Below the pieces are notes generated by a model. That model saw only the letters and a list, made by a program, of their open reading frames with translations, ran no database searches and was not told the origin of the DNA. A DNA stretch of 64,000 bases from Candidatus Acidiferrales bacterium (GTDB lineage: Bacteria; Acidobacteriota; Terriglobia; Acidiferrales; UBA7541): NCBI GenBank assembly GCA_049517055.1, contig JBEKSN010000002.1, forward strand, positions 433-64,432. The letters run 5' to 3'. Position 1 is the first letter of the stretch, and each line of letters opens with the position of its first letter. The translations under genes were made by a program, and so were the position numbers. Positions 33,029 to 49,355 of the stretch are shown here, piece by piece.

Positions 33029-34417
33029 ATCACACCCGCTGCGACTAAACCCAAAGTTGCGATTGTTGACGATGACCATAGCCTTCGCTCAAAGATTGCG
33101 TCCGCTCTGCGATCGGAGTTCGAAGTCTTCGAAGGCGAGGATATGGCAGCGGCCTACAGCCTCCTCCAAGGGTCCGCACTTGACGTTTTGCTCCTGGGCC
33201 TCCCGCTCGGTGACGCGGGGGTTCGCGAATGCACCGAGCTGCTTGCCCGGCTGGTCGGAAGCGAAATTGACACCCTCGTAATCGTGCTCAGTTCTGACAA
33301 AACAAAAGCCACCGCTTTGAAAGTGATCGACGCAGGCTCTTACGACTACTTCATCAAGCCCATTGACACGGACGTTCTTCGGCATCTACTCGAGCGAGCC
33401 GTTGAAAAATTACACATTCAGCGCGAAAACCGAATTCTCCGTCAGGAGATAAGCCGCAAGAGCACTCATGGCGATTTAATCGGATCGACCGACGCCATGA
33501 GCCATGTTTTCGATTTCATAAAGCGAATGGCCCGGACGACCACCAATGTCATCATCCGCGGAGAGAGCGGGGTGGGTAAAGAACTTGTCGCAAGGGCCCT
33601 TCACGAACAGAGTCCGCGACGAAACCGTGCATTCGTTAGCGTGAATTGCGCCGCGCTTCCCGAAGGCTTAATGGAAGCTGAGCTATTTGGCTATGAGAAG
33701 GGAGCCTTCACCGGCGCAACGGCCATGAAGGAAGGGCGCGTGGAAATGGCCCACCAAGGAACGCTGTTTCTTGATGAAATTGCGACACTTACGCCCGCTC
33801 TCCAGAGCAAACTCTTGCGTGTGTTGGAGGATCGCTCGTTCACTCGACTAGGCGGCAAAAAGCCCATCCGCGTGGATTTCCGCCTAATTAGTGCGACAAA
33901 CGAAGATCTGGAGGAGATGGTTCGCGAGGAACGGTTTCGCGAAGATCTCTATTACCGAATTCACGTGGTGCCCATTTTCGTGCCCTCTCTACGCGAGAGA
34001 ATGGAAGACATACCGGTGCTTACGGATTACTTCGTCAGCGTTTATTGTGCTGCCAATAGTCTCCCCCCAAAGCGCATTGCGGACGACGCGATGCTGGCCC
34101 TGAAGCGCTACCCGTGGCCTGGGAACGTCCGCGAGCTCCAGAATGCAATTCAAAGGCTGGTTATAATGACGGACGGGGAGGTGATCTCGTTAAAGGACCT
34201 CCCCGGTGAGATTGTGCAAGCTGCCGGCCGGGATTCGCGCAACCGTTTCCGTCTCCCCTCAGGTGGAATAAATCTGGCTAAGGAAATGGAGACTTTCGAG
34301 CGTCGCTGGCTTCAGGAAGCTTTAGAGCAGGCTAAAGACGGGAAAGCCGATGCGGCGCGACTGCTGGGAGTGGACCGGAATCGGTTGAACTACCTATGTC
34401 GTAAGTACAATCTATAA
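33029..34417 (+). CDS. Sigma-54-dependent transcriptional activator (atypical REC - AAA+ - Fis HTH)
   Basis: AAA+ Walker A GESGVGKE, the sigma-54 contact loop GAFTGA, and a C-terminal HTH (AARLLGVDRNRLNYLCRKYNL). The first ATG is at 33143, but the receiver N-terminus (KVAIVDDDHSLR) is encoded in frame upstream with no ATG, GTG or TTG after the in-frame stop at 33008. An ATC at 33029 sits 6 nt after a GGAGA SD. Confidence 0.85.
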   Translation: MTPAATKPKVAIVDDDHSLRSKIASALRSEFEVFEGEDMAAAYSLLQGSALDVLLLGLPLGDAGVRECTELLARLVGSEIDTLVIVLSSDKTKATALKVIDAGSYDYFIKPIDTDVLRHLLERAVEKLHIQRENRILRQEISRKSTHGDLIGSTDAMSHVFDFIKRMARTTTNVIIRGESGVGKELVARALHEQSPRRNRAFVSVNCAALPEGLMEAELFGYEKGAFTGATAMKEGRVEMAHQGTLFLDEIATLTPALQSKLLRVLEDRSFTRLGGKKPIRVDFRLISATNEDLEEMVREERFREDLYYRIHVVPIFVPSLRERMEDIPVLTDYFVSVYCAANSLPPKRIADDAMLALKRYPWPGNVRELQNAIQRLVIMTDGEVISLKDLPGEIVQAAGRDSRNRFRLPSGGINLAKEMETFERRWLQEALEQAKDGKADAARLLGVDRNRLNYLCRKYNL

Positions 34418-34552: not shown

Positions 34553-34568
34553 TGGAACCAGTTTTGCA
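34553..34568 (+). promoter_or_regulatory. Sigma-54 (-24/-12) promoter TGGAAC-N5-TTGCA for peptide gene A
   Basis: TTGGAACCAGTTTTGCA matches YTGGCACGrNNNTTGCW with exact GG-N10-GC spacing. It lies ~50 nt upstream of the ATG at 34616. Confidence 0.7.
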
Positions 34569-34615: not shown

Positions 34616-34699
34616 ATGGCAAAGAAAATCTTGAAGAAGGCAAAAAAGTTGGAAGAAACGAAGCCCCTCACAAGAGTCGGCTGGGCGAGTAAGACCTAA
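34616..34699 (+). CDS. 27-aa lysine-rich small peptide A (MAKKILKKAKKLEETKPLTRVGWASKT)
   Basis: ATG 7 nt after a GGAGGAA SD, with a sigma-54 promoter upstream and a terminator downstream. Paralogous to 35114..35197. Too short for the ORF track. Confidence 0.65.
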   Translation: MAKKILKKAKKLEETKPLTRVGWASKT

Positions 34700-35043: not shown

Positions 35044-35059
35044 TGGCGCGCGGATTGCA
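35044..35059 (+). promoter_or_regulatory. Sigma-54 (-24/-12) promoter TGGCGC-N5-TTGCA for peptide gene B
   Basis: TTGGCGCGCGGATTGCA has exact consensus spacing. It lies ~55 nt upstream of the ATG at 35114. Confidence 0.7.
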
Positions 35060-35113: not shown

Positions 35114-35197
35114 ATGGCGAAAAAGACAGTGAAAAAGGGAAAGAAGCTCGGATCAGTGAAGCCTCTCAGCTATCACGGGCCAGTTCGCACTAAGTAA
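35114..35197 (+). CDS. 27-aa lysine-rich small peptide B (MAKKTVKKGKKLGSVKPLSYHGPVRTK)
   Basis: ATG after an AAGGAGA SD, with a sigma-54 promoter upstream and a strong terminator downstream. 13 of 27 residues are identical to peptide A, concentrated in MAKKxxKKxKKLxxxKPL. Confidence 0.65.
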   Translation: MAKKTVKKGKKLGSVKPLSYHGPVRTK

Positions 35198-35254
35198 CTT
35201 GGACCTGAAGCAAGCGGGCTTCGTGCCTGCCAAAGTTAGCAGTTGCACTACCAA

Positions 35255-35290
35255 GGGCTGCCGTCCCAGGAACGGCAGCCCTTTTTTATT
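35255..35290 (+). terminator. Intrinsic terminator after peptide gene B
   Basis: Perfect 10-bp stem GGGCTGCCGT / ACGGCAGCCC with a 7-nt loop, followed by TTTTTTATTT. It abuts the stop of the convergent 35331 gene. Confidence 0.8.
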
Positions 35291-35330: not shown

Positions 35331-37478
35331 TCACCAAAACTGCGAACGCACCCAGCGCCATGTCGCCAGCCCGCTCTGCCAGGCCAAAGAATGTCTGGGC
35401 CCGGAAATTTTCGCTTTTCCGGTCATGCCTTCCCGCAGGGACCCATCGGGGTTTGGAATTTCCATCTCAACTGCAACGAAGTTTGCCAACTCTTGCCCTA
35501 ATCGCGTGAGCTTCTCTGTCTGCGCGACCGGATGATCCAGCGCCGCGGCCGGAAGTATTTTGTCGATGTGGCCCGTGTAAGTTCTGTACGGAAACGGGAG
35601 CACCTTCACCTTTGCAGAGGCGCCGGGTTGAACGTCCGGAAGTTCCCGGTCCTGTACAAGGATACGCGCCTTCATGGTGCTTCGATTCACCAGCCGCGCA
35701 AACTCGTCCCCCGCCGAAAGGTATTCGCCAGCCTTCTGTTCCACATTTGAAGTAGTGACGACCCCGTCCATGGGAGCTCGAATTTCGAGGTTCTGCAGTC
35801 TTTTCTGCGCTACGGAAAGCTCTTGCTCAAGCCGGCCGCGATTGCGAACCACTTGCGCCGCTTGACTGAAGTCTGAGCGATCCTGATTATTGCGGAGGTT
35901 GCTGCTGGCGAGCCCTAATTGTTGGGTAAGCGATTGCGCGTCGGCACTTATTTCGGGATTCTCCAAAATGGCCAATATTTGCCCCGCTTTTACTACATCG
36001 CTCTCGCGGACAAACACTCTTTGAATTCTGCCGTCAACGGCAGCCCGAACGCGCACATCCTTTCCGGGCTCGAGCACCAAATCGGTAGAGACCTTCGAAG
36101 AAAACGGGGGCAACAGAAATAGCAGAACCAGTCCAAGAGCGCCAACTTGCTGCGCCCGGGTCATTTTCCAGGCCATATATTTCTCCTTCTTGTCCCGCAT
36201 CCAAGCCCGTACGACGGGCAAAGCTTTTCGCAAACCCTTTCTTGCAAAGAAATAGATGACGCCCAGGGTTGCCAGATAGCCCCATTCGTCCCCCAGTTGG
36301 CTCACGAGCACATTCTTAGCAAACACAAGCATGAGAATCAGGAGCGACGAGCTGTAAATCACAGCTGAAATTCCGAACAGGAAGAAAACACGGCGCTGGC
36401 GCTTGCTGGACGGCGGCAAGTCTATGTCATGCCGAAAAATGTACTTCTGCACCCAGGCTCGCAAGTAGCCGAAAGACTCTTCACGCAGGTTATCAATTTT
36501 GAGGAATTGCGAGAGCGCATAGTAGCCGTCGGCTTTGATTAGCGGGTTCAAGTTCACGAGCGCGCCCTGAATGCCGCTCAGCAGCATCATTTTGTAGAAG
36601 AAGTCATTCGTCAGCGAGCCCGGTGCCGTGAAATGCCAGACCAATGCAGCCACTCCGCAGATCACCAGTTCAATCCAAATGCCCGCGAAGATGACCCACT
36701 GACGCGGAGTCCCTGTCTTGAACAGAAGAATGTCCGTGGTGTCAGTAAAAAATGCGGGAGTGAAATAGATGAGCAAAAAACCCATCTGATGAACCTCGCC
36801 GCCAAAATGTTTACAAGTAAGCCCGTGACCGAATTCGTGTATGGCACCCAGACCCAAGAGGAGGAACCAAAAGACCCAGATGTCGTAGGCGCTTTTACCT
36901 GCAAAACTATATAAGGCCTCCGTGTCCTGCTGCACGCGGGTCCAATCGCCGGCGAGCAGATAAACCGCCACAATAAATAGGAACAAAGAAAAGATGACAA
37001 AGCCCTTGGTAAACATCCATCCGAGATAGCGATCCAACTTAGCGAGCGTCTTGTCCGGATCCCAAGCTTTAAAGCTGATGTAGAGGACACTCGATTGCTC
37101 GACCCGACCTTTGCGCTCGTCGCGAATGCGCTCAAGTACAGCCAGGTTTTTTTCCCCGACCGAGCGTTCCCACATAGTGGCTTCCACCGAGTCGAGGAAG
37201 TCGAGCACGTCGGCCTCGCTGGTGGTCAAATCGGGATCCTTTTCAGACATGGCCTGTGCGATCTCGGCAGCCGTACGAGTTCCGTCGCAAAGTGACAGCA
37301 GTTGATATTCCGTGGCCCCGTATCGGTTGTAGGAGTTCGTCTCGCGGTTTTTGACCACGTAACTGATTTCGCCCGCTACCGTTTGTTCGCTGATGCGCAG
37401 ATCGGTACGGAGTTTGGGTCGTTTAAGACCTTTCGCCAGGACGCTGGAAACTTGAAGGCTGGTAGGACCGAAACGCAT
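35331..37478 (-). CDS. PqqD-like (RRE) domain / M50 site-2-protease-like metalloprotease / HlyD membrane-fusion domain fusion protein
   Basis: 715 aa. N-terminal PqqD-like segment (YQLLSLCDGTRTAAEIAQAMSEK...EADVLDFLDSV). HExxH in AIHEFGHGLTCKHFGG and a second S2P motif NLNPLIKADGYYALS within TM helices. C-terminal HlyD barrel-sandwich and coiled coil (VDGRIQRVFVRESDVVKAGQILAIL, LEIRAPMDGVVT). Confidence 0.8.
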   Translation of the reverse strand: MRFGPTSLQVSSVLAKGLKRPKLRTDLRISEQTVAGEISYVVKNRETNSYNRYGATEYQLLSLCDGTRTAAEIAQAMSEKDPDLTTSEADVLDFLDSVEATMWERSVGEKNLAVLERIRDERKGRVEQSSVLYISFKAWDPDKTLAKLDRYLGWMFTKGFVIFSLFLFIVAVYLLAGDWTRVQQDTEALYSFAGKSAYDIWVFWFLLLGLGAIHEFGHGLTCKHFGGEVHQMGFLLIYFTPAFFTDTTDILLFKTGTPRQWVIFAGIWIELVICGVAALVWHFTAPGSLTNDFFYKMMLLSGIQGALVNLNPLIKADGYYALSQFLKIDNLREESFGYLRAWVQKYIFRHDIDLPPSSKRQRRVFFLFGISAVIYSSSLLILMLVFAKNVLVSQLGDEWGYLATLGVIYFFARKGLRKALPVVRAWMRDKKEKYMAWKMTRAQQVGALGLVLLFLLPPFSSKVSTDLVLEPGKDVRVRAAVDGRIQRVFVRESDVVKAGQILAILENPEISADAQSLTQQLGLASSNLRNNQDRSDFSQAAQVVRNRGRLEQELSVAQKRLQNLEIRAPMDGVVTTSNVEQKAGEYLSAGDEFARLVNRSTMKARILVQDRELPDVQPGASAKVKVLPFPYRTYTGHIDKILPAAALDHPVAQTEKLTRLGQELANFVAVEMEIPNPDGSLREGMTGKAKISGPRHSLAWQSGLATWRWVRSQFW

Positions 37479-37490: not shown

Positions 37491-38414
37491 CTACGGCTTT
37501 GATGGCGAGGTTCCAGGCCATCCGACGCGTACCGCCATTCCGGGACGCAGATCGGAAATTCCCGAACCAGTGAGCTGCGCCACCACATTGTAACTATCGC
37601 TGGACGGATCCACGGTAGGACTTACTTTCACCACCTTCGCGCTGACCTGGCGATCGGCACCTCCCACGAGCGTAAGGCTAACCGGCGCGCCGAGTGCGGG
37701 GCGCGGGCTGGCCAATTCGGAAATTTGAAACTGGACCTGCAGAGGATAGAGTTGACTCACTCGAAAACACTTGTCACCCTTGACGATGGCTTGTCCTTCT
37801 CGAACGTAGCGGCGCGCCACGACGCCCGAGAACGGAGCGCGCAAAACGGTCTGGTCGATTTCAATTTCGAGACGGTGGATCTCGGCTTGGCCGCTTTCGA
37901 CCAAGGCCTCATATCCGTGCATGTCGTACTCAGCGCCTTTTGCTTCGAATTCCGCGGCTTCGAGATCAGCCTGACTTGACAGTCCCGCTTCCCGCAACTG
38001 CTGCTGACGCCGGTAGGCTGCGCCCTTAGCCTTCAGTTCCGCTGCTTTGTATTGCAGGTTGTTCTGAGTCACCTTCAGATCGTCGCGCGCCTTGATGAGC
38101 TCCTGTTGCAGGCTTCGGTCGTCAAGGTGGCCAAGAATTTCGCCTGCCTTGACTACGCTGCCTTCGTCTTTGACGACGGACGTCACCGTGCCATCGCGTT
38201 GCGAGGAGAGATCTACCTGATGTTCCACTGTGAGCACGCTTAGAATATCGGGGGTCTCGGTCCCTTTTGCGGAAACTGCGCTTGGCGCGGGAGTCTGAGA
38301 CGAAGCTGCGTTGGATGGCGGCGCATTCTTGGGGCTGGAAGCAACCGACGAATTGTCGCAACCATTTCCGACAATTGCCATTGTAGCGACTAAGATCAAC
38401 GCGGCGCGTTTCAT
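37491..38414 (-). CDS. HlyD/RND-adaptor-family periplasmic lipoprotein
   Basis: 307 aa. Signal peptide ending in Cys (LVATMAIVGNGC), a Ser/Pro linker, and barrel-sandwich/coiled-coil motifs (DGTVTSVVKDEGSVVKAGEILGHLD, LRAPFSGVVA). Only 12 nt from the downstream gene. Confidence 0.8.
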   Translation of the reverse strand: MKRAALILVATMAIVGNGCDNSSVASSPKNAPPSNAASSQTPAPSAVSAKGTETPDILSVLTVEHQVDLSSQRDGTVTSVVKDEGSVVKAGEILGHLDDRSLQQELIKARDDLKVTQNNLQYKAAELKAKGAAYRRQQQLREAGLSSQADLEAAEFEAKGAEYDMHGYEALVESGQAEIHRLEIEIDQTVLRAPFSGVVARRYVREGQAIVKGDKCFRVSQLYPLQVQFQISELASPRPALGAPVSLTLVGGADRQVSAKVVKVSPTVDPSSDSYNVVAQLTGSGISDLRPGMAVRVGWPGTSPSKP

Positions 38415-38433: not shown

Positions 38434-40860
38434 TCACGGCAGCCAGGGCCATATCTTTTGCCAGATCCATCTGAACGGCGAACGCAGAATCACGTACCCA
38501 ACCGGGTACCATCCACTGTCAAACCACCCGCCCCACGACCGAATTCTCACTCGCCCAACCATTCCATCGCGGGCCTTTCCTCCGGCGTTCTCGAATATCG
38601 CGCGCACCAGGAAGTACTGGTCTCCCGAGTCAGTCCGAGTCTGTGCCCCGATGCGATCTACAGTGCCCTCGAACGTAGTTGTCGGGAACGCATTTAACTT
38701 CAGTGACACATTTTCCCCTGGCCGTACGAGCGAAAGATCGGTTTCAGGGACGCTCATTTCCGCAGCCATGCGGTCCTGAGATACTACTTCGCAGAAACTA
38801 TCTCCGGATTTGATCATGGACCCGGATTTTTCTTCCACCTTCGGAGTGGTCACGATGCCGGCGATGGGTGAGGTCAAGCGCGCGTCATTTATTCGTTGCT
38901 GCTCAAGTGCCACTTCAGCGGAATATAGCTGCGAGCGTATCTGAGCCTGTCCTGCCGCTGCGGGGTCATTCCGGAATTCGGCTTCGGCTAATTCACGCCG
39001 CACCTGAGACAACGCGGTGTCGGCTTCTATTAGCTTTATGCGATCCTCGCTGTCGTCGAGTTGCGCAAGCAGCTGGCCTGGCTTCACCAAATCGCCTTCG
39101 CGCACGAAGACTTGTTTTACGACTCCGCCCTCAATTGCGCTCACCATGCGGCGCTCGGATGGGACCACCGTGGCGTCGGTGCCAACGCGCATGGGCCATG
39201 GGATTATCGTCAGAAAAAGGGCCACGATGCCGGCGCGTTGCGCGTATTCCATCATGCGGCTCTGCGGCATAGCCGCCAGGAACTTTTTCTTTCTCTGCGC
39301 AAACGGCTGGAAAATATTCGCCAGCGGAACTTGCTGGTAAAGCTGGGCGTTGCGGATAGCAACCGTAGTCTGGCTGGCAAGGATGGCCAGGGTTTCCAAA
39401 TGGCTTTCTGAGAGAAAATCGGCTTCCTTGCTCAGAAGAATCATTGCGCCGAGCGTCCCTTGATCGTCGCGCAGTGGCAAGCCGTAAAAGCCTTGGTGTT
39501 CATGGGCTTCTAGGAACGAGACAATTTGGGCGTGGGCCTCTGCAGGCTCCACTTGCCAGCCATCCTCATGAAAATTCGCCGAAACGTGACTATCCTGTTC
39601 CGCCACCCACTCCATGCGTTCGCGCAGCTCGCTCATTTCCCGCGTCTTCGGAACTTCCGTTTCTCCGGAGACGGCCCCCAGGACGAAGCGCCCACGGTCG
39701 TAAAATCCAATAACGCAACTCTCAAACGGCACGACAGATGCCGACTGCGCCACTACCGTGGTCAAAACGTGATCGAGATCCAGAGTGGAAGTAATTTCCT
39801 GCGAAATTTTCAACAGGGCATCGAGGGCGTGAACCTTTCGCTCGGACTCCAGCAGGTTTGCATTGTGCAGTGCCACCGCGGCCTGTTCGCTGATACTCGA
39901 GAGGAAAAATAGGTCGTCTTCATTGAACAGCGTACCGTCCGCCTTATTAATGATCTCGACGACACCGAGAACCTCGTCGTCTTTTCGCAGGGGCGCCGCC
40001 ATCCAAGACTGAAGCTCGAAATCTCCGCCAGCTTCAATGCGTTCGGCTAGCCCGGCTTCCCCGCTCGGGTCTTCGACTAACTTCGGGTTTGCTTGCTGCG
40101 CAACTTCAGCCAGCAAACCTTCACTTAATGACGCGGTGGCGTCCTCTTCAACCGTAGGGTCATCGCCGATTTGCCTCGCAAGACTGAGTTCCTGTCCGCC
40201 AGGCGAAGCGAGCCAGAGATTGCAGGCTCCGGCCCCCAAAATGTCGCGGATTTTACCCGCTACGATGGGGAGAAGCTCTTCCAGTTCCAGAGTTGACGTA
40301 AATGTCTGGCCCAGGTCGTATAGCGCGGTCAGGCGTTCGAGAGTGGCGAGTTGGCTCTGACGTTCCTGCTCAATCGCGCCCAGATTGGTCAGTGCGCGGC
40401 CTGCCAGCTGGCATGCTTCTTCCAGGAAGTGCGCGTCTTCGGCGGTGAAGTCCCCGGCGCGCTTATTGAGAACCTCGACTACGCCTTCCGGCCTTTGCGC
40501 TCCCGGCAGGGATGAATACAAAGCGGATTTCACGCGCGTACGGCTGAACTCATCAAGATGCTCAAGATCTTCTGGTGCGATTTCGCGTGCGGGCAAACGC
40601 CTGGTGGCGGCTGATTGGTACAATATTGCGAGCGTTCCCCCGTTGACAGGCAATTCGGTGGGATGCAAGCGTTCGCCCGGCTCAGTCCAGCGCATGCGGC
40701 AAAGGAGTTCCTCTGCTGTTCCGTTCGTCGTCCATACGAGCACGGCGCGCGCTCCGAGCGTAGTGCCCACTCGGGCGGCGAAGGTCTTCAGCAGGGTGTC
40801 TTGATCGCGGCACGCTAAAGATATGCTCGCGAGCTCAAAAAGCGCGGAAGATGTTTCCAT
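38434..40860 (-). CDS. Triple-GAF sensor fused to a TM-anchored HlyD membrane-fusion domain
   Basis: Three GAF-like modules, each ending in ...AVALHNANLLESER-type helices. One TM helix (AGIVALFLTIIPWP) is followed by HlyD motifs (IEGGVVKQVFVREGDLVKPGQLLAQLD, LTSPIAGIVT). The ATG at 40860 follows a GGGAGAG SD. The ORF-track start at 40941 would overlap the candidate promoter. Confidence 0.75.
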   Translation of the reverse strand: METSSALFELASISLACRDQDTLLKTFAARVGTTLGARAVLVWTTNGTAEELLCRMRWTEPGERLHPTELPVNGGTLAILYQSAATRRLPAREIAPEDLEHLDEFSRTRVKSALYSSLPGAQRPEGVVEVLNKRAGDFTAEDAHFLEEACQLAGRALTNLGAIEQERQSQLATLERLTALYDLGQTFTSTLELEELLPIVAGKIRDILGAGACNLWLASPGGQELSLARQIGDDPTVEEDATASLSEGLLAEVAQQANPKLVEDPSGEAGLAERIEAGGDFELQSWMAAPLRKDDEVLGVVEIINKADGTLFNEDDLFFLSSISEQAAVALHNANLLESERKVHALDALLKISQEITSTLDLDHVLTTVVAQSASVVPFESCVIGFYDRGRFVLGAVSGETEVPKTREMSELRERMEWVAEQDSHVSANFHEDGWQVEPAEAHAQIVSFLEAHEHQGFYGLPLRDDQGTLGAMILLSKEADFLSESHLETLAILASQTTVAIRNAQLYQQVPLANIFQPFAQRKKKFLAAMPQSRMMEYAQRAGIVALFLTIIPWPMRVGTDATVVPSERRMVSAIEGGVVKQVFVREGDLVKPGQLLAQLDDSEDRIKLIEADTALSQVRRELAEAEFRNDPAAAGQAQIRSQLYSAEVALEQQRINDARLTSPIAGIVTTPKVEEKSGSMIKSGDSFCEVVSQDRMAAEMSVPETDLSLVRPGENVSLKLNAFPTTTFEGTVDRIGAQTRTDSGDQYFLVRAIFENAGGKARDGMVGRVRIRSWGGWFDSGWYPVGYVILRSPFRWIWQKIWPWLP

Positions 40861-40931
40861 TACTCTCCCAGCGGCAGGGGATACTCTTAGTCGCGGGTAA
40901 AAACCGCGCGCGAATGAAGAGATAGTGAGGC

Positions 40932-40947
40932 AGCCTAGCAAATGCCA
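40932..40947 (-). promoter_or_regulatory. Candidate sigma-54-type promoter (TGGCAT-N5-AGGCT) for the GAF-HlyD/HlyD/M50 operon
   Basis: The minus strand reads TGGCATTTGCTAGGCT with correct GG-N10-GC spacing. The -24 element is strong and the -12 element is degenerate. It lies ~75 nt upstream of the ATG at 40860. Confidence 0.35.
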
Positions 40948-41063
40948 TGTATAGCGTCAAGGAAGACCGCTGTCGCCATCTGCCGTATTTCTTAGAAGTT
41001 TTTTGCAGGGACTTGATTGCCGGACATAATTCAGATAGCTTTGCAAAGCGCAGTGAGGCACAT

Positions 41064-41399
41064 GTGAACATTGGCATCCGCAAGGCTGGCCGAGCCACAA
41101 TCCTGGATCTCGACGGGCCGCTGAAATTGGGCGACGCTGAAGAATCTTTTCGCAATCAGATTCAGCAGCTCATCGAAGCGGGGACCACACACGTAGCTGT
41201 GAATCTCGCCGGCGTTACGGAACTCGACAGCTCGGGGATTGGGGCACTCGTTCGTGCGTTCACCACGCTGAAGCGCGCGGGCGGAAAATGCACCTACTTC
41301 GCGCCGAATAAGCGGGTAGTGATGCTGTTGAAAATGGTCCGGCTCGACACAATTCTTGACCTCGCCGAAGACGAAGCTACAGCTCTTACGCGCATCTAG
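41064..41399 (+). CDS. STAS-domain protein (anti-sigma-factor antagonist family)
   Basis: SpoIIAA-like sequence (ILDLDGPLKLGDAEE...VAVNLAGVTELDSSGIGALV). The GTG at 41064 follows a GAGG SD. ORF-track start 40947 is an alternative. Confidence 0.7.
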   Translation: MNIGIRKAGRATILDLDGPLKLGDAEESFRNQIQQLIEAGTTHVAVNLAGVTELDSSGIGALVRAFTTLKRAGGKCTYFAPNKRVVMLLKMVRLDTILDLAEDEATALTRI

Positions 41400-41477: not shown

Positions 41478-42143
41478 TTAACGGCGATCGAGCGCTGGAT
41501 GCCGTACGTCGCGGCCGGCGACGAAGTAAATCACGTCTTCGGCGATGTTTGTCGCGTGGTCTCCGATGCGTTCGATGTTTTTCGCCACCAGAACAAGCTC
41601 GAAGGCGGTGAACACCACGGCGGAGTTTTCCATCATGTAGGTAAGCAACTCGCGGAAGAGTTGGTCGCGCAGCCGGTCCACCTGGTCATCGCGCTGGAGC
41701 ACGCTATGGGCTAGCTCGATATCTCCTCGCACCAGGGCATTCAAGCTATCGCGGACCATCCCTTCGGCCAGCTCGCTCATTCGCGGCAAATCAACGTAAG
41801 GCTTCACCTGTGGATGGCGCATGATCCGCGTTGCCGATTGCGCGATATTGACAGCTTGGTCTCCGATGCGCTCAAGGTCTCCGTTGATGCGCGAAACCGC
41901 CAGCAAGAATCGCAAGTCGGCGGCCATAGGCTGTTGCAGTGCCAGCAAACGTTGCACGCGCTCGTCGATTTCAATCTGAATCTCGTTAATTGCATCTTCT
42001 TCAGTCAAAACGGTCTCGGCGAGGTGCTCTTCACCATCCAGCACCGCGTGGATCGCCTGATGGACGGCTCGCTCGGCGAGGCTTCCCATCCAAAGCAGTC
42101 GCTGTTTCAGTTCTTCGAGGTCTCGCTCAAAATGTCGTTCCAT
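41478..42143 (-). CDS. phoU: Phosphate signalling complex protein PhoU
   Basis: 221 aa with duplicated PhoU repeats (NGDLERIGDQAVNIA, AKNIERIGDHATNIAEDVIY). Lies downstream of pstB. Confidence 0.9.
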   Translation of the reverse strand: MERHFERDLEELKQRLLWMGSLAERAVHQAIHAVLDGEEHLAETVLTEEDAINEIQIEIDERVQRLLALQQPMAADLRFLLAVSRINGDLERIGDQAVNIAQSATRIMRHPQVKPYVDLPRMSELAEGMVRDSLNALVRGDIELAHSVLQRDDQVDRLRDQLFRELLTYMMENSAVVFTAFELVLVAKNIERIGDHATNIAEDVIYFVAGRDVRHPALDRR

Positions 42144-42197
42144 GTTTCCTCAGACCTTTCCGTTTCTGCGTGCAATAGCCCGATGAACCAATCCACT

Positions 42198-43037
42198 TTA
42201 GCCAAAGCGGCCGGTAATGTAGGCCTCAGTACGCGGATCGGTAGGCGTCGTAAATAGTTTAGATGTTTCGCTGTGTTCGATGAGTTTGCCGTCAAGCATG
42301 AAGGCTGTGAAATCGCTGGCGCGGGCCGCCTGCTGCATGTTGTGAGTAACGATTGCCATGGTGCAGCTATCCTTCAGCTGAAACAATAATTCTTCAATCT
42401 TTGCGGTCGTCACCGGATCCAGCGCGGAGCAGGGCTCGTCCAGCAAAAGCACTTCAGGGTTCACGGCGAGCGCGCGCGCAATACACAGCCTCTGCTGCTG
42501 CCCGCCGGAAAGCGCGAACGCCGACTTGTGAAGGTAATCCTTGACCTCGTCCCAAAGCGCCGCGCGGTGCAGGCTGCTTTCTACGAGTTCGTCGAGACGC
42601 CCCTTATAACCATTGATGCGAAGTCCATACGCCACGTTTTCATAAATCGACTTCGGAAAGGGATTCGGCCTCTGAAACACCATTCCGACACGACGCCGCA
42701 GATTCACCACATCCATCGAATGTATATCTTGGCCGTCGAGCAAGATCTCGCCATCCACGCGAGTGTTTCTGATGATCTCGTTCATGCGGTTCAACGTGCG
42801 CAGGAATGTCGACTTTCCGCATCCCGAAGGTCCGATTAAGGCGGTCACCTTGTTCACCGGGATCTTCAGGTTCAGCCCAAAGATGGCCTGCTTTGGGCCG
42901 TAGAAAAAATTCAGGTCGGAGATCTGAAAGCGCACCGGCGTCTCCTTTTCCGAAGCCATCGAGCGAGGATCATTCATACGCACTTGCGGAGCGAGTCTTG
43001 CGGCGGTGGCATTGCTGCCTTGGGAAATCGACGGCAT
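42198..43037 (-). CDS. pstB: Phosphate ABC transporter ATP-binding protein
   Basis: Walker [10 protein letters not shown], signature [15 protein letters not shown], Walker B LLLDEP. Confidence 0.95.
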
Positions 43038-43038
43038 A

Positions 43039-43893
43039 TCACGCGCTCCTGACCGCGCTGCCGCGGTTCAGTAGAAGACGGGCACCCAGATTTGCAACCA
43101 GCACCAATCCCAATAATACCAAGCCCGCGGCCCACGCCTGCCTATGCCAATCATCATACGGCGCGATGGCATATGTATATATCATGACCGGAAGTGACGC
43201 GGTCGGCTGTTCGAAGCCAGGGCTCCAAAACCGGTTCCCGAAGGCGGTAAAGAGCAGCGGCGCAGTTTCCCCGGCAACCCGCGCGAGCGCCAGCAGCATT
43301 CCCGTTAGTATGCCGCCGCTTGCTGCGGGCAGCACGACGGTAACGATAGTCTTCCACTTACTGGCTCCCAGCGCCATTGCGCCTTCGCGCAGGCTTCCGG
43401 GCACCGCCCTAAGAAACTCCTCCGTGCTTCGTACCGTGATCGGGATCACCATCATCCCTAGCGCCACGCCGCCGGCGAGCGCGGAGAAATGTTTCACCGG
43501 CAGCACCACCAGCGAGTACGCGAAAATACCTATAACGATGGACGGCACGCCGTTCAGCAAATCCGTCGTGTACCGTACGACGAACGAAAATGTTTTGCCC
43601 CCGAACTCCGCAAGATACACGCCGGTAAGCAATCCTACCGGGAGGCCCATCAAAGCTGCCAACATCAGCAGCTTCAGGCTGCCAACAATGGCGTTGGCCA
43701 TTCCACCGCCCGATTCACCCACGGGCTTCGGGAGCTGCGTAAAAAAATTCCAATTCAGCGATTTGCCGCCGTTCCAGATCAAATAGCCAAGGATAAAAAA
43801 CAAAATCGAAACCACTCCAAGCGCGGCTATTCCGGTCAAGCTCAGCATTACGTAATTCAATGACTTTCGCCAGACAATACGTGGATTACTCAT
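43039..43893 (-). CDS. pstA: Phosphate ABC transporter permease PstA
   Basis: The start [10 protein letters not shown] forms an ATGA overlap with the pstC stop. Carries the EAA-loop [13 protein letters not shown]. The longer ORF to 44217 lies inside pstC. Confidence 0.9.
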
Positions 43894-44888
43894 GCGGGCC
43901 GACCTCCTCCGCGTCCGGTGGCGACAATCAAAATCCGAGCCAAGCCATTCAGAATAAACGTGATCAGGAATAGCACCAGCCCCAACTCGATCAGCGAACT
44001 CAAATACAAGTCTCCGGTCGCTTCCGTGAATTGGCTGGCGATGGTGGAAGCGATGGTATCGCCGGGCGAAAGCAGCGAGGCGGCGATCGTTGGCGCATTG
44101 CCTATCACCATGGTAACGGCCATCGTTTCGCCCAGCGCGCGTGCCAAGGCGAGGAATACAGAACCCATGATGCCGGTGCGAGCCCATGGGACCACTACCT
44201 TCCAAGTGGATTCCCATCGCGTTGCGCCCATCGCAAGCGCCGCTTCGCGCTGCTCGCGCGGCACCGTCAACAGAACTTCCCGCGAAACAGAAATGATGAA
44301 CGGCACGACCATAATCGCCAGAACGATCCCAGCGGTCAGAAAGCCGACTCCGTAATTGGGTCCATGGAACAACGCCCCGATGTAGGGAACATTACCGAGT
44401 GTGTGAATCAGGGCCGGACCTATCGTCGTGCGCATCACTGGCACAACTATAAAAATTCCCAGCAGGCCATAGATCACGCTGGGGACAGCCGCCAGCAAAT
44501 CAATCAAAAACGAGATGACGTCACTGACCTTGCGCGGCGCGAGCTCGGAGAGAAAAATCGCGCTCGCAAGCCCAAGCGGAACCGCGAGGCAGAGCGCCAC
44601 TGCTGAAGTGACTAACGTTCCATATATGAACGGCGCCGCACCAAAGTTGTCAAAGTTCGGATCCCACACCCTAGTCCAGAAAAACATCCATCCGAATTTT
44701 GCCCGGGAAAGATGTGAATTCGCCCAGAGCTCGTACACCAGCATCGACGTGATGAGGAGTATAAAGGCTGAAAATGTAAGGGTAACGAGGTGAGCGATTT
44801 CGTCGCCGCTGCGCAGCCGGCGAAGAAACGCGCGAGGGCCCGCTTGCGGCGGAACCTCGTGCGCGATTGTGGTAGCGGCCGCGGACAT
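43890..44888 (-). CDS. pstC: Phosphate ABC transporter permease PstC
   Basis: 332 aa with six TM helices and the EAA-loop QREAALAMGATRWE. Confidence 0.9.
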   Translation of the reverse strand: MSAAATTIAHEVPPQAGPRAFLRRLRSGDEIAHLVTLTFSAFILLITSMLVYELWANSHLSRAKFGWMFFWTRVWDPNFDNFGAAPFIYGTLVTSAVALCLAVPLGLASAIFLSELAPRKVSDVISFLIDLLAAVPSVIYGLLGIFIVVPVMRTTIGPALIHTLGNVPYIGALFHGPNYGVGFLTAGIVLAIMVVPFIISVSREVLLTVPREQREAALAMGATRWESTWKVVVPWARTGIMGSVFLALARALGETMAVTMVIGNAPTIAASLLSPGDTIASTIASQFTEATGDLYLSSLIELGLVLFLITFILNGLARILIVATGRGGGRPA

Positions 44889-44889
44889 T

Positions 44890-45912
44890 TTACTGAATCA
44901 GCGAAATCGCCTTCGTCTCCCGCGCGATTAGTTCTTTTGGTAGCTGGGCATAGGTTAAGCCCTCATTGTACTTCTGACCTTCCGCCAACATCCATTTCAG
45001 AAAATCCTTGATGGCCTCACGCTTCGCTGCGTCCTGAATTTGCGCGGGAATCAGCAGCCACGTGAAACTTGAAATGGGATAAACCTTTGGCCCTGGAGCG
45101 TTAGTAATCGAAACGCGGAAGTCTTCCGGAATGTTCTTGGCATCGGCGGCCGCTGCTGCCGTTACTCCTGCCAAATCCGCCTTAACGAAGTTTCCCGCTG
45201 CGTTCTGAACTTTCCCGTAAGGAATGTTGTTTTGCACGGCGTAGATCAACTCGATGTAGCCGATCGAGTTCGGCGTTTGCTTGACCAGCCCGGTCACGCC
45301 TTCGTTGCCCTTGCCACCCAGCCCTACCGGCCAATTCACGGAAGTGGCTGCGTTCCCCACTTTTTTCTTCCAATCCTCGCTGACCTTCGCCAAAAAATCC
45401 GTCCAGATGTAGGTGGTCCCACTGCCGTCCGAACGGTGAACCACAACGATATCTGCACTCGGAAGTTTCACGCCCGCATTCGCTTTGGCGATTTCCGGGT
45501 CATCCCACTTGGTGATCGTTCCGAGATAAATTCCCGCTAACGCCTTCTGTGTGAAATTTAGTTCCCCGGATACGCCCGCGATATTGTAAGTCGGCACCAC
45601 TGCGCCGAGCACGGTGGGAAAATGCAGGATCTTGAACTTCGATTGCGAGAGCTGCTCATCCGTCATGGGTCCATCAGAAGCGCCGAAATCCACGGTGCCG
45701 GCCTGCAGTTGACGTATCCCGCCGCCCGATCCGATGGATTGGTAGTTAATCTGAATGTTCGGGTGCGCGGTGTGGTAAACGTCAAACCACTTGGAATAAA
45801 TCGGATAGGGAAAAGTGGCGCCAGCGGCATTTAGCAGCACCGTTCCATTTTGGGCTGCCGCGATGGCAGCCAGGCCGAGCGCGAGCGACACAACTAGCAG
45901 GCTCTTTTTCAT
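44890..45912 (-). CDS. pstS: Phosphate ABC transporter substrate-binding protein PstS
   Basis: The start MKKSLLVVSLALGLAAIAAAQ follows an AGGAGAA SD. PBP motifs GATFPYPIYSKW and SIGSGGG. ORF-track start 45936 is eight codons upstream. Confidence 0.9.
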   Translation of the reverse strand: MKKSLLVVSLALGLAAIAAAQNGTVLLNAAGATFPYPIYSKWFDVYHTAHPNIQINYQSIGSGGGIRQLQAGTVDFGASDGPMTDEQLSQSKFKILHFPTVLGAVVPTYNIAGVSGELNFTQKALAGIYLGTITKWDDPEIAKANAGVKLPSADIVVVHRSDGSGTTYIWTDFLAKVSEDWKKKVGNAATSVNWPVGLGGKGNEGVTGLVKQTPNSIGYIELIYAVQNNIPYGKVQNAAGNFVKADLAGVTAAAAADAKNIPEDFRVSITNAPGPKVYPISSFTWLLIPAQIQDAAKREAIKDFLKWMLAEGQKYNEGLTYAQLPKELIARETKAISLIQ

Positions 45913-45940
45913 GTTCTTGAATTCTCCTGGTCCCATTTTT

Positions 45941-45967
45941 TGTCAGAATTGTTACAACCGTGTTACA
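45941..45967 (-). promoter_or_regulatory. Pho-box-like direct repeats (TGTAACAcggtTGTAACAattcTGACA) upstream of pstS
   Basis: 7-nt repeats with 11-bp periodicity directly upstream of the pst operon. This layout parallels PhoB boxes (7-nt repeat plus 4-nt spacer). Confidence 0.55.
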
Positions 45968-46069
45968 TCGACGAGAATGAGGGGTGAAATGCGGGTCGCT
46001 TCGGCTTGGCGGCCAGGCTGCCGGGGCTCCCGCCGCTCAGGGAAGGCGCGTCCGGGCGGTTCGTATAGA

Positions 46070-46786
46070 TTACAAAGTTCCTGCCGCGAGGCTGTCCTCG
46101 GCCGTAATTTCGATCTGCTTTGCTCGCCCGTGCCGGACTTCTAGGCCGCGGATCCAGAACAAGATGTCTTCGGCGATATTGGTAGCATGGTCCGCAATCC
46201 GCTCAAGGTGGCGCGAGGCCAGCACGTAGTGCAGATTCGGAGCCGCTAAAGAAGGGTTCTGGGTCATGCCGGACAGCAGCGATTCGAAAAGATGATCGCG
46301 GTATTGATCGACCACGTCGTCACTTTCGAGCACTTGGGTCGCGAGGTCCACGTTTTGGTAAATCAATGCTCCTAGACATTTCGAAACCATCGCGCGCACC
46401 GCTGTAGCCATGGGCTCAAGCTCGACTGGAATGGGCACTTCGCCCATCGCCGATAGCGAAATGGCGCGTTCGCTAAGGTTCACGGCGAGATCACCCATGC
46501 GCTCGAGGTCGTTATTGATTTTGAGTGTGGCGACTATCAGCCGCACTTCTGTATCGGCTAGGTTTCCCTGGCGCAACATGCGGATGGCGTGCTCGTCAAT
46601 CACGATTTCCATTTCGTTGATGCGGGGCTCATTCAGAAAGACCTCGCTGGCCAACCGCTCATTGCGCTCCAGCAGCGCCCAAAGAGCGCGGTTGACGGAG
46701 GCTTCCACTGTGCGCGCCTGGGAAACCAGATAGTTCACTAAAACACTTTGAAAAATTCCTTCAGTGCTGGTTTTCGTAGCCGCCAT
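46070..46786 (-). CDS. PhoU-family phosphate regulatory protein (second paralog)
   Basis: 238 aa with two PhoU repeats (NNDLERMGDLAVNLSERA, SRHLERIADHATNIAEDILF). Lies downstream of phoR. Confidence 0.85.
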   Translation of the reverse strand: MAATKTSTEGIFQSVLVNYLVSQARTVEASVNRALWALLERNERLASEVFLNEPRINEMEIVIDEHAIRMLRQGNLADTEVRLIVATLKINNDLERMGDLAVNLSERAISLSAMGEVPIPVELEPMATAVRAMVSKCLGALIYQNVDLATQVLESDDVVDQYRDHLFESLLSGMTQNPSLAAPNLHYVLASRHLERIADHATNIAEDILFWIRGLEVRHGRAKQIEITAEDSLAAGTL

Positions 46787-46900
46787 TCGCCACCTCCTGC
46801 CTAAATCACCGGGTCTAATTAAATGTCTGCGCGTACAGGATGGCAGGGAAAGACTGCAACCGAATTAACGGCAGGTGAATGCTGTGAGACAACTCGAGGC

Positions 46901-48667
46901 TTAGCTGGAAAGAGGAATGGAAAAAGAGAACTTCGATCCTTGGCCCACCGCGCTCTCAACCCACAGGCGCCCACCGTGAGCTTCCACAATGTGCTTGGCA
47001 ATCGAAAGCCCCAGCCCGGTACCGCCGGCTTCCCGAGATCGCGCAGCGTCCACTCTGTAAAAGCGCTCGAAAATCCGCTCCTGGTCGGCCTGCGGTATTC
47101 CAATACCGGAATCTGAAATCGTAATGGTTGCTTCGTGAGGCCCTGCGCTTGCTTCGACAACTATTCGGCCGCCCGGCGGCGTGTACTGGATAGCATTATC
47201 GAGCAAATTCTGCAATACGTCATGCAGCAGACTCGCGTCGCCGCGCAGGGCCGGAATCCCGGCTGGAACTTCCATGCTGAATGAAATTTGCTTACGGCTG
47301 GCTTTAAGCAAAGTCGTCTCCGCACAGCCTTCGATCAGTTCCTGCACGCCGACCGGAAAAAATTCCAATTCAAGCTTTCCTGCCTCGATGCGGGCTAGTT
47401 TCAATAAATCATCTGTTACGCGAGCCAGGCGTACTGCATGCTCGCGAATGATTTCCAAAAACCGCCGATTGTTCTTGGGATCGTCAACCGCTCCGGCCAA
47501 CAGAGTCTCGGCAAAACCCTGAATAGCGGTCAAGGGAGTCTTGAATTCGTGCGAGACATTTCCCACAAAATCCTGGCGGACGCGTTCGAGCCGCCGCAAT
47601 TCGGTCACATCGTGCAAAACGACCACCGCTCCGGATGGCTTGTCCGCTGGCACGTTTCGATCCGCGTCCAGGGCTTGCACGGGCGCGGCAGTTACCGAAA
47701 AACTCAGAGGTTGCACGATTCCTATCTCGATATCGTTCTGCAGACCTTCCTCGCCTTGCAAAGCTTTGCGAATAAGACCGATCAATTCCGAGCTTCGAAC
47801 GACTTCAATTAACGGACTGCCTTCGCTGGTCACTGATTGAACATTTAGAATGTCTGAAAACGCGCGATTGCAGAACACCAGCCGTTCTTGCGCATCCACT
47901 ACGGCCACGCCTTCGACCATGCTGCGGAGGATCGCGCTCGACCGGTTGCGCTCGCTGCTTAGCAAGCGTATCTCACGGTCCAGGTGCGCCGCCGTTTTGT
48001 TCATTGAGTCAGCAAGGTCGGAAAGTTCGTCACGTGGTCCCACCGCCAGCCAAGGGTGAAAGTCTCCAGCGGCGATTCGTTGGGAGAAATCTTTCAGGTG
48101 TTCGACGCGCGCAACAAAAATACGCGCGAAAATCAGGGATACCCCAATTCCGATCGCTAAAATGATTAGCGAAGCAACCAGTAACCGCTGACGAAGCTCT
48201 TTTAGCGACAAATCATTTTGCGCCAGCGGTAATGCCAGGCGAATCACGATAGGCGAACCAGAAGCTGGCTGAAAACGTTGCGCTCGGCACACGAGTTCAC
48301 GGACACTATCAACCGACCGTCCCACACCATTAGCGAGAGCTTGTTGCACCTCGGGCCAATCGCTCGGTTTTTCGGGGTCGCCTGCGCCATTTGCCGAGTC
48401 CGCTAGAACCCCTCCCGAAGCATTGATTACGGTGACACGCGCTCCGCTTTTCGCCATCCAGTCGGTCCAGGCACGCACTGCCACCTCGCTGAATGCGTCC
48501 GGTGGGCGCGCCTGCGCAAGATTGAACAGCGAAACGAGCTGATCGTTTGCAGAGCGTATCGAGTGGCTACGAACCACGCGGGCAGAATAGGAATCAACGG
48601 CGATTAAAACGCCAAGCAGAAGGACCAGGTACGTCAGTCCCAGCCGCCAGAAAAGCCTAGCTCGCAC
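46901..48667 (-). CDS. phoR: Phosphate regulon sensor histidine kinase
   Basis: 588 aa: TM - periplasmic domain - TM - HAMP - PAS - HisKA (SHEFKTPLTAIQGF) - HATPase (GTGLGLSIAKHIV). Overlaps the phoB stop. Confidence 0.85.
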   Translation of the reverse strand: MRARLFWRLGLTYLVLLLGVLIAVDSYSARVVRSHSIRSANDQLVSLFNLAQARPPDAFSEVAVRAWTDWMAKSGARVTVINASGGVLADSANGAGDPEKPSDWPEVQQALANGVGRSVDSVRELVCRAQRFQPASGSPIVIRLALPLAQNDLSLKELRQRLLVASLIILAIGIGVSLIFARIFVARVEHLKDFSQRIAAGDFHPWLAVGPRDELSDLADSMNKTAAHLDREIRLLSSERNRSSAILRSMVEGVAVVDAQERLVFCNRAFSDILNVQSVTSEGSPLIEVVRSSELIGLIRKALQGEEGLQNDIEIGIVQPLSFSVTAAPVQALDADRNVPADKPSGAVVVLHDVTELRRLERVRQDFVGNVSHEFKTPLTAIQGFAETLLAGAVDDPKNNRRFLEIIREHAVRLARVTDDLLKLARIEAGKLELEFFPVGVQELIEGCAETTLLKASRKQISFSMEVPAGIPALRGDASLLHDVLQNLLDNAIQYTPPGGRIVVEASAGPHEATITISDSGIGIPQADQERIFERFYRVDAARSREAGGTGLGLSIAKHIVEAHGGRLWVESAVGQGSKFSFSIPLSS

Positions 48668-49355
48668 GGGTGGTTTCGAAGAGGTAACCGGCTCCGCGAA
48701 TGGTTTTCATGAACCCTGGATGCTGCGGATCCGTTTCGATTTTCTCGCGCAATCGCCGCACGTAGACGTCCACGCTGCGCGGCGTGACAAATCGTTCCGT
48801 GCCCCAAACGGCGTCGAGTAACTGGTCGCGCGTAAACACCCGATTGGGACGCGCCGCCAAAAAATAAAGCAGCCGGAACTCGAGGGTGCTCATCTGCACT
48901 GGTTTTCCTGCGCGCGTTACACGGTATGCCGCCGGATCGATTTTCAATGCGCCAATCTCAAGCGGTTTCTCCGAGGGTGCTCCAGGTTCGGCTCGTCGCA
49001 AGAGCGCCTTCACTCGCGCAACGAGCTCGCGCGGACTGAATGGTTTCGTCACGTAATCGTCCGCGCCAAGCTCCAGTCCCACCACGCGATCCGCTTCTTC
49101 GCCTTTGGCCGTGAGAATTAGAATCGGCAGGCGGTTCAGCGTGACATCCTTGCGAACCTCTTTGCAGATCTCCAAGCCCGAAAGCTTGGGCAGCATCAGG
49201 TCTAGGATCAGCAGATCGGGCGCGGCTTTTCGAATCTGCGCCAGACCAGTTGAGCCATCCCCACTCGACGCTACCTGATAACCGTCTTTCTCCAGGTTGT
49301 AGCGCACTAATTCAACGATGTCTTTGTCGTCTTCGATCACCAGTACGCGTTTCAT
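48657..49355 (-). CDS. phoB: Phosphate regulon response regulator (OmpR family)
   Basis: 232 aa. REC (LLILDLMLPKLSG) plus a winged-helix domain (LTRAGKPVQMSTLEFRLLYFLA, IRGAGYLF). Confidence 0.85.
   Translation of the reverse strand: MKRVLVIEDDKDIVELVRYNLEKDGYQVASSGDGSTGLAQIRKAAPDLLILDLMLPKLSGLEICKEVRKDVTLNRLPILILTAKGEEADRVVGLELGADDYVTKPFSPRELVARVKALLRRAEPGAPSEKPLEIGALKIDPAAYRVTRAGKPVQMSTLEFRLLYFLAARPNRVFTRDQLLDAVWGTERFVTPRSVDVYVRRLREKIETDPQHPGFMKTIRGAGYLFETTRAS

Follow-up and report, generated by a model that had tools for sequence, protein, structure and literature searches.

The 64-kb stretch of Candidatus Acidiferrales DNA analysed here (64,000 nucleotides of contig JBEKSN010000002.1, hereafter the window) encodes, at 38434-40860 on the minus strand, an 808-amino-acid (aa) protein in which three GAF domains are fused through a single transmembrane (TM) helix to a periplasmic adaptor of the membrane-fusion protein (MFP) or HlyD type. 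We propose that this GAF-adaptor serves as the input-bearing subunit of a three-adaptor apparatus, organized around an M50 protease, that processes or exports short peptides, and we estimate the probability of this reading at roughly 0.45. In tripartite systems, adaptors are commonly viewed as structural connectors, and a widespread family of adaptors bearing a tandem GAF array suggests that envelope-spanning conduits may come under direct cytoplasmic control. With the genomic context described below, what was an orphan domain fusion becomes a testable system, namely one with candidate 27-aa substrates, a candidate processing protease with intact catalytic motifs and a dedicated sigma-54 activator. 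If the proposal holds, diderm bacteria would possess an ABC-independent route of peptide or protein release, and the abundant Acidobacteriota of peat and soil would encode a new family of hypervariable peptides.

A single gene encodes three GAF domains and a periplasmic adaptor

The open reading frame (ORF) enclosing the gene spans 38434-40941 (minus strand), and translation likely starts at 40860 with an ATG that the sequence GGGAGAG precedes by four bases. A start at this position yields 808 residues and reproduces the extent given in a preliminary description of this DNA, which had read the gene as three cytoplasmic GAF domains, one TM helix and a HlyD adaptor. Pfam profiles, an AlphaFold2 model and Foldseek comparisons all agree with that domain order within one intact gene. 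In the Pfam searches, the protein matches GAF over three stretches (E = 1.7e-30) and GAF_2 (E = 5.7e-28), which confirms the GAF identity of its N-terminal region, as well as HlyD_D23 (E = 9e-20, residues 569-767), HlyD_3 (E = 9e-17) and Biotin_lipoyl_2 (E = 5e-8). The match to the NCBIfam model TIGR01730 (RND_mfp), at 102 bits, exceeds the cut-off of 94.9. Hydropathy analysis reveals a sole strongly hydrophobic segment, AGIVALFLTIIPWP. Because a stretch rich in lysine and arginine (K/R-rich) precedes this segment, the N-terminus is predicted to lie inside the cell, with the GAF domains in the cytoplasm.

The AlphaFold2 model, computed from an alignment of 49 homologues (mean pLDDT 86.4), refines this layout. 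GAF1 (residues 1-139; 40444-40860, like all parts of the gene on the minus strand), also delimited by Pfam, occurs in three-GAF variants only and is absent from relatives of 610-670 aa. It is followed by a connecting helix of 50 residues (140-189; 40294-40443), GAF2 (190-313; 39922-40293), a second connecting helix of 45 residues (314-358; 39787-39921) and GAF3 (359-484; 39409-39786), which is found in all family members. An exit helix (485-509 in the model) and a K/R-rich juxtamembrane segment, together residues 485-532 (39265-39408), then lead to the TM helix (533-552; 39205-39264), where the hydropathy maximum and a modelled helix coincide. The array ends near residues 484-511; the three GAF modules of the preliminary description are confirmed, and the ~560 residues that it had allotted to them prove too many.

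The periplasmic adaptor occupies residues 553-808 (38437-39204). Its modelled fold spans residues 553-786 and comprises a lipoyl/barrel-sandwich domain, an alpha-hairpin (604-660, formed by helices 604-629 and 633-660 with pLDDT >90) and a beta-barrel, and is followed by a C-terminal amphipathic helix (787-806). The predicted structure contains both elements that define a periplasmic adaptor or MFP, namely a lipoyl domain with a beta-barrel and an alpha-helical hairpin. Foldseek matches this periplasmic part to MacA (E = 2e-15, target TM-score (TMt) 0.70), AcrA and MexA (TMt 0.70-0.77), and the cytoplasmic part to the tandem GAF domains of the phosphodiesterase (PDE) PDE2A, CyaB2 and PDE5/PDE6 (E ~1e-14).

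A first search returned 885 homologues, and nearly all of the 120 listed, on which lengths were judged, measure ~808 aa. In a scan of one genome per species we found 62 loci, every one of which (62 of 62) carries the full-length gene. A sequencing frameshift that joins two separate coding sequences, an artefact that the preliminary description had considered, is ruled out because hundreds of sequences retain the fusion over its whole length. The proteins of the 62 loci are 71-99% identical to that of the window, with the best match in a palsa peat genome, and nearly all of the loci are labelled as Acidobacteriota metagenome-assembled genomes (Candidatus Acidiferrales, Sulfotelmatobacter, Acidoferrum). 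Three loci of 71-85% identity (L010, L038 and L058) belong to bins that bear the names Candidatus Binatus, Candidatus Udaeobacter and Planctomycetaceae; mistakes in binning or labelling probably explain these odd names better than horizontal transfer does.

A second search with a profile of 24 sequences recovered almost solely the same clade, and a third was built from distant members alone. With a threshold of E<=1e-30, an exhaustive search of representatives (clusters at 50% identity) yielded 1387 clusters. Among the best 150 representatives, at least 55 contain both the GAF and the adaptor parts, in three-GAF (~800 aa) or two-GAF (610-670 aa) forms with identity down to 24%; the remaining hits among these 150 are giant multi-GAF proteins matched through their GAFs alone. 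GAF-HlyD fusions, whose distribution the preliminary description had left to a check of domain architecture, are by this count widespread and occur across phyla.

Three adaptors and an intramembrane protease are encoded together

Three minus-strand genes follow one another with gaps of 12-19 nt, in the order GAF-adaptor, 307-aa adaptor and 715-aa M50 fusion. The second adaptor (307 aa; 37491-38414), whose gene begins 20 nt downstream of the GAF-adaptor gene, has a signal peptide with a cysteine at position 19, is kept in 61 of the 62 loci and, as judged from these sequence features, is probably a lipoprotein. The third (715 aa; 35331-37478) joins a PqqD-like N-terminus to an M50 (site-2-protease-type) intramembrane metalloprotease and an adaptor. 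Its catalytic motifs HEFGH and NLNPLIKADGYY are intact, and an alignment across phyla shows HExxH and NxNPLxKxDGYY to be invariant. The PqqD match is sub-threshold in Pfam, with 18.4 bits in the window protein and 22.8 bits in a plasmid-borne homologue (L069) against a cut-off of 23.4; it recurs in 5 of 13 members and in the two plasmid members. Two NCBIfam protease models for peptides that are made by ribosomes and modified after translation (RiPPs) match the 715-aa protein below their equivalog cut-offs, daptide_HExxH with 181 bits and LiaK/YydH with 45 bits. A profile search of the PDB with the M50 fusion matched the adaptor part and nothing else. At a related locus of 55% identity (L068, 11376-13606) gene calling splits the M50-adaptor gene into three fragments, with NLNPLIKADGYY in one of them; either a pseudogene or indel errors of long reads would account for them.

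The GAF-adaptor, the small adaptor and the M50-adaptor occur together in ~59 of the 62 acidobacterial loci. With five of five distant loci and two plasmids, described below, these counts confirm the constant association, which the preliminary description had put up for checking, of GAF-HlyD fusions with a gene for an M50 protease with a HlyD adaptor and a domain resembling a RiPP recognition element (RRE). They also bear on whether the protein is a conventional efflux-pump adaptor that serves an unlinked RND, ABC or MFS pump. The TIGR01730 score above cut-off and the source annotations ('RND family efflux transporter MFP subunit') point in that direction. No gene for an ABC, RND or MFS transporter is adjacent in the operon or in ~70 related loci, and the protein is always paired with the M50-adaptor fusion, a combination that renders a service to an unlinked pump very improbable.

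The three-adaptor operon is preceded by a sigma-70-like promoter, TTGACG-N17-TAGGCT (40932-40960, minus strand); it recurs, with minor substitutions, in all of the upstream regions inspected, and across relatives the spacing is TTGACG-N17/18-TAGGCT. A sigma-54 promoter was sought for this operon and was not found, and the conserved sigma-70-like promoter stands there instead. The ~70-nt 5' untranslated region that follows the promoter (the two together at 40861-40960, minus strand) contains a GC-rich inverted repeat. This repeat is kept between clades while its sequence changes (for example GGCGTGGGTGACGCC in the 73% clade), and it may be a regulatory hairpin.

Hypervariable peptides with sigma-54-type promoters adjoin the module

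Two paralogous genes, pepA (34616-34699, plus strand) and pepB (35114-35197, plus strand), occupy the gap that separates the M50 gene from a convergent gene for a sigma-54 activator. They encode the lysine-rich 27-aa peptides MAKKILKKAKKLEETKPLTRVGWASKT and MAKKTVKKGKKLGSVKPLSYHGPVRTK, respectively. Each gene has a Shine-Dalgarno sequence, a promoter and a terminator-like hairpin. The sigma-54-type promoter of pepA, TGGAACCAGTTTTGCA (34553-34568, plus strand), ends 47 nt 5' of the ATG, and the sigma-54-type -24/-12 promoter of pepB, TGGCGCGCGGATTGCA (35044-35059, plus strand), ends 54 nt 5' of the ATG; an intrinsic terminator lies 3' of pepB (35253-35283, plus strand).

Across the 62 loci, one to three such genes, encoding peptides of 22-34 aa, occupy the same gap, and the locus of 55% identity (L068) shows the same arrangement. 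A regular expression for the peptides gave 89 matches, all downstream of the M50 gene on the strand of the sigma-54 activator, and none elsewhere in 1.1 Mb; in the whole 64-kb window its two matches are pepA and pepB only. The promoter element TGG-N8-TTGCA ends 45-52 nt 5' of the ATG in 70 of 81 peptide genes; the background rate is 0.0105 per 130 nt.

Closer examination of the 81 peptides reveals a nearly invariant, lysine-rich leader of 18 residues (MAKKxLKKxKKLExTKPL, positions 80-100% conserved; leader sequence MAKKILKKAKKLEETKPL). Because the nucleotide divergence of the leaders concentrates at third codon positions (0.186, 0.016 and 0.309 at positions 1, 2 and 3, respectively), these short ORFs are taken to be coding. 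The tails that follow are hypervariable and measure 4-13 residues; they are cationic and devoid of Cys, with Asp and Glu almost absent and Ser scarce. A conserved leader followed by a variable core, the layout expected of RiPP precursors, is what the set presents (81 peptides; 52 of 55 cores unique). No NCBIfam model matches the peptides even at E<=10, and no gene for a RiPP-type modification enzyme was found between 31 and 42 kb of the window. As far as we could find, neither the predicted peptide family nor its putative promoters have been described in the literature. Because a conserved leader and a hypervariable tail adjoin a protease with a peptide-recognition-like domain, the PqqD-like/M50 protease fusion probably takes peptides of the pepA/pepB type as substrates.

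The sigma-54 activator, a bacterial enhancer-binding protein (33143-34417, plus strand), consists of a truncated receiver, an AAA+ domain and HTH_8, and its gene is convergent with the module in 55 of the 62 loci. The Pfam match of the receiver is restricted to profile positions 33-110, and a Gly stands at the expected phospho-acceptor Asp (DVLLLGLPLGD), as judged by eye against the usual receiver pattern; phosphorylation probably does not control the activator. Among NCBIfam models the protein matches PEP-CTERM PrsR best, below the cut-off.

A proposed peptide-processing apparatus

From the genes, folds and promoters described above we infer the substrates, the export and the gating as follows. 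In the acidobacterial lineage, sigma-54 and its activator would induce peptides of 22-34 aa as substrates. The apparatus would be built around the intramembrane M50 metalloprotease fused to an adaptor and a PqqD-like peptide-binding domain, in a layout resembling type I secretion with the protease-adaptor fusion in place of the ABC transporter. The PqqD-like domain would bind the lysine-rich leader, the M50 protease would then cut it, and the short hypervariable tail would exit through a ring to which all three adaptors contribute and a TolC-like channel whose gene lies elsewhere. In the cytoplasm, the three GAF domains would form a PDE-like tandem array whose connecting helices relay an input through the TM helix to the periplasmic adaptor. 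The relayed input would control assembly or opening of the apparatus, in parallel to the part played by the cytoplasmic segment of HlyD in the substrate-triggered recruitment of TolC. HlyD deleted for its first 45 residues fails to recruit TolC (PMC4446572), a result that contradicts the portrayal of HlyD adaptors as passive in the preliminary description.

The module shares with type I secretion systems and tripartite pumps (HlyB-HlyD-TolC, MacAB-TolC) a MacA/AcrA-like adaptor and an N-terminal TM anchor with a cytoplasmic extension. It differs from them in that it comprises no ABC, RND or MFS component, has three different adaptors and takes an M50 protease as its inner-membrane partner; the putative signal of its substrates is N-terminal, in contrast to the C-terminal signal of RTX-type secretion. 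M50 proteases that remove RiPP leaders (daptide MpaP-type, epipeptide EpeP/YydH) resemble the 715-aa protein in the model matches given above and in their leader-core precursors, and EpeP is thought both to cleave and to export its epipeptide. Unlike these, the 715-aa protease is fused to an adaptor, its cluster contains no modification enzyme and its host is diderm.

A different reading retains the protease and dispenses with export, namely a regulated intramembrane-proteolysis complex in which the M50 protease is under the control of the GAF-adaptor and the small adaptor and in which the peptides, or some other substrate, act inside the cell. Site-2 proteases commonly carry or recruit regulatory domains, BofA and SpoIVFA control SpoIVFB, and the operon contains no transporter or ATPase. 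Such a complex fits poorly with three complete MacA/AcrA-like adaptors with hairpins, with the OEP genes adjacent to the module in three of five distant loci and with the giant extracellular-type proteins that adjoin it on plasmids, and we consider proteolytic control inside the cell improbable.

Several points weigh against the exporting apparatus that we propose. The family is known from computation alone. Conserved adjacency alone links the peptides to the module, and their genes are convergent with it, not co-transcribed. The operon encodes neither an energy source (an ATPase or a transporter driven by the proton-motive force) nor an outer-membrane factor. The PqqD-like assignment stays below the Pfam threshold (18-23 bits versus 23.4), and the single-sequence model of the M50 fusion reaches a pLDDT of 40, too low to define its topology or an RRE fold. 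In the model of the GAF-adaptor, residues 512-528, between the exit helix and the TM helix, have low pLDDT, and such a segment could decouple rigid signalling. Finally, the contrasts of charge and motif on which we draw below are essentially a comparison of two clades and so are not phylogenetically independent.

Conservation and possible inputs of the GAF array

Among 55 orthologues, the second connecting helix (0.13 bits of entropy), the most conserved segment of the protein, and the first (0.33 bits) vary less than the GAF domains (0.55-0.68 bits). The RNAxLY motif of the exit helix is invariant across the family, as are R503, N504, L507 and P512 at the exit helix and juxtamembrane region in the family alignment. 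Because the strongest constraint in the protein falls on the connecting helices, as expected for signalling helices, we regard them as candidate signal relays; in the tandem GAFs of CyaB2 and PDE2A, connecting helices carry the allosteric change. Given the PDE-like fold and the conserved helices, a regulatory or sensory role for the array is reasonable.

The same observations discriminate against a passive scaffold, in which the array would merely dimerize or space the adaptor, or dock cytoplasmic partners constitutively, and carry no regulatory signal. The tandem GAFs recovered by the fold match dimerize through long helices, and GAF1 is dispensable in many relatives (the two-GAF variants), as a scaffold would allow. 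A scaffold would hardly account for the conservation of a 500-residue array across phyla, or for constraint that is strongest on the connecting helices and the RNAxLY exit helix, a pattern typical of signalling helices; we judge it quite unlikely.

By sequence, GAF2 is closest to the GAF domains of cyclic GMP phosphodiesterases (5w10, E = 1e-12; PDE2A). It keeps N305, K306, F312 and D316 of the NKFDE signature, with Leu at the E position; GAF1 reads NK..F..ED, and GAF3 lacks N-K. The 808-aa protein shares with PDE2/5/6 and CyaB1/2 the GAF-helix-GAF architecture and, in GAF2, the N-K...F...D residues, and it differs from them in its output, which is a TM helix and a periplasmic adaptor rather than an enzyme, and in the loss of the alpha4 motif. 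In the alpha4 region of GAF2, in which we take the residues concerned to be ligand contacts, the whole acidobacterial clade has ER.EAGGDFE.QS, whereas non-acidobacterial relatives and PDE2A GAF-B have RF..VD..TGF.T.S. The window GAF2 reads IEAGGDFELQS at this site and lacks the VD..TGF.T of the PDE2A GAF-B type. GAF2 is also strongly acidic: its net charge is -16 in the window protein (that of GAF3 is -14) and ranges from -11 to -21 in the peptide-linked clade versus +2 to -10 in most other relatives (one at -14). The loss of the cyclic-nucleotide-type motif coincides with this acidification and with peptide leaders of ~8 lysines.

These features bear on the model of the preliminary description, in which one or more GAF pockets bind a metabolite or second messenger (cyclic AMP, cyclic GMP, cyclic di-GMP, 2-oxoglutarate or another) and occupancy switches the apparatus. 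GAF is mostly a small-molecule-binding fold, and the affinity of GAF2 with the cyclic GMP phosphodiesterases, the retained N-K...F...D residues and the VD..TGF.T.S of distant relatives are what such a model would predict. Genes of second-messenger signalling stand beside some distant modules, each a single case, namely a Crp/cNMP-binding regulator inside the operon (L066, 5685-6407), a convergent FHA-GAF-nucleotide cyclase (L067, 9410-11449) and a PilZ protein (L064, 8723-9037). The replacement of the alpha4 motif by AGGDFE.QS in the acidobacterial clade, the lack of NK in GAF3 and the absence of any cyclase or cNMP gene near the module within the window speak against the model, and we regard gating by a small molecule as unlikely, if well worth weighing. 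Because the GAF2 motif is lost, GAF2 is acidic and HlyD offers a precedent, a cationic substrate or a partner protein seems to us a more likely input in the peptide-linked clade than a cyclic nucleotide. The sensing of such a substrate or partner fits the observations no worse than a small ligand does. Of the earlier idea that an intracellular signal controls the apparatus, the regulatory role is retained and the cyclic-nucleotide-type ligand is disfavoured.

Relatives in other phyla and the LEPR-XLL lead

A module of this composition was described in silico by Kamneva, Poudel and Ward in 2015 (PMC4452313) as the 'secondary SecA_DEAD' module, which consists of GAF+HlyD, Peptidase_M50 and HlyD/biotin_lipoyl proteins and usually a SecA_DEAD protein, as exemplified by M. 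extorquens META1p2402-2399. Its three core proteins have the same domain make-up as those of the window, and direct homologues lie on two plasmids (L069 and L070). The window version differs in that no SecA_DEAD gene accompanies it in the 64-kb window or in six further loci, in its three GAF domains versus the one or two recognized by Pfam in that study, and in its linkage to a sigma-54 activator and leader-tail peptide genes, which PMC4452313 does not report. For SecA_DEAD, the scan covered the window ORFs within ~25 kb on either side of the gene together with all the largest ORFs elsewhere, and the further loci were L063-L068; none was found in either set. We found no literature after 2015 on the GAF-HlyD module and nothing relevant on M50/HlyD/PqqD or M50/HlyD/GAF combinations or on acidobacterial sigma-54 RiPPs, and large reviews of adaptors do not mention GAF. 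The GAF-adaptor family is known in silico and uncharacterised, and the acidobacterial form is a variant with no SecA-like gene nearby, three GAFs and sigma-54 peptides. The preliminary description was aware of no characterised example; the fusion is uncharacterised but not unprecedented.

Five distant loci, including Thermodesulfobacteriota and Magnetococcales, all encode a GAF-adaptor, an M50-adaptor of ~700 aa and a small adaptor, and an OEP/TolC-like gene adjoins the module in three of the five. Lysine-rich peptide genes with sigma-54 promoters were found in none of these five loci. Two alphaproteobacterial (Rhodobacterales) plasmids, NZ_CP085155.1 (L069/L071) and NZ_CP123586.1 (L070/L072), carry GAF-HlyD, PqqD-like/M50/HlyD, SecA_DEAD and small-adaptor genes. 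These modules lie directly downstream of giant genes, in one case of 38.7 kb, for a 12.9k-aa LEPR-XLL protein, and in the other of 24 kb, for an 8.1k-aa calcium-binding protein. In the latter, an in-frame LEPRLLL lies 14 codons upstream of the start that is annotated, and the N-terminus of the protein is probably mis-annotated. SapC-family genes are present in both plasmid loci.

LEPR-XLL proteins (NCBIfam NF012209) stand beside modules homologous to that of the window, and in two unrelated genomes LEDRIAP follows a basic N-terminal stretch in neighbours of the module (L064, 9472-9560; L067, 3572-3710). On visual comparison, KKLE(A/P)TKPL in the peptide leader resembles a diverged LEPR-XLL/LEDRIAP signal. 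The LEPR-8K hidden Markov model (HMM) matches neither the peptides nor the LEDRIAP proteins even at E<=10, and since it detects neither, we keep this visual resemblance as a lead only. Giant proteins in Planctomycetes, Verrucomicrobia and Proteobacteria carry the LEPR-XLL signal, as yet unexplained, at their N-termini, and the module may be linked to it.

Taken further, the three proteins of the module (GAF-adaptor, small adaptor and PqqD-like/M50-adaptor), whether or not a SecA-like ATPase and a TolC-like channel join them, might constitute a distinct and unnamed envelope-spanning secretion pathway in which the protease replaces the ABC transporter. Its substrates would be addressed by an N-terminal basic stretch followed by LE(P/D/A)(R/T)xx(L/P), that is, the LEPR-XLL signal, and the GAF-adaptor would gate it from the cytoplasm. 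The Acidobacteria would use a minimal, SecA-less version that releases hypervariable short cationic peptides (pheromones or bacteriocins) under sigma-54 control. This broader proposal is tentative and, as a whole, somewhat doubtful.

Other genes of the window

No gene for an outer-membrane factor was found in the operon or nearby among the window ORFs scanned. A single TolC-like gene turned up in the window, within an Emr-like operon at 11958-16341 (plus strand), which encodes an OEP (500 aa, 11958-13460), a 432-aa ORF whose position suggests an adaptor, and a 522-aa MFS transporter; by its position this OEP is unrelated to the module.

A divergent gene for a STAS (anti-sigma-antagonist-like) protein (40947-41399, plus strand) adjoins the module in ~20 of the 62 loci and at the locus of 55% identity (L068). 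Because its annotated 5' end overlaps the operon promoter, its true start probably lies downstream of 40947, near 41060. An association of STAS with the module is possible and is not constant across clades. Directly upstream of the module, at 41478-49355 (minus strand), lies a complete Pho cluster composed of phoB, phoR, phoU, pstS, pstC, pstA, pstB and a second phoU. This linkage is kept in most, not all, related loci and is probably plain synteny.

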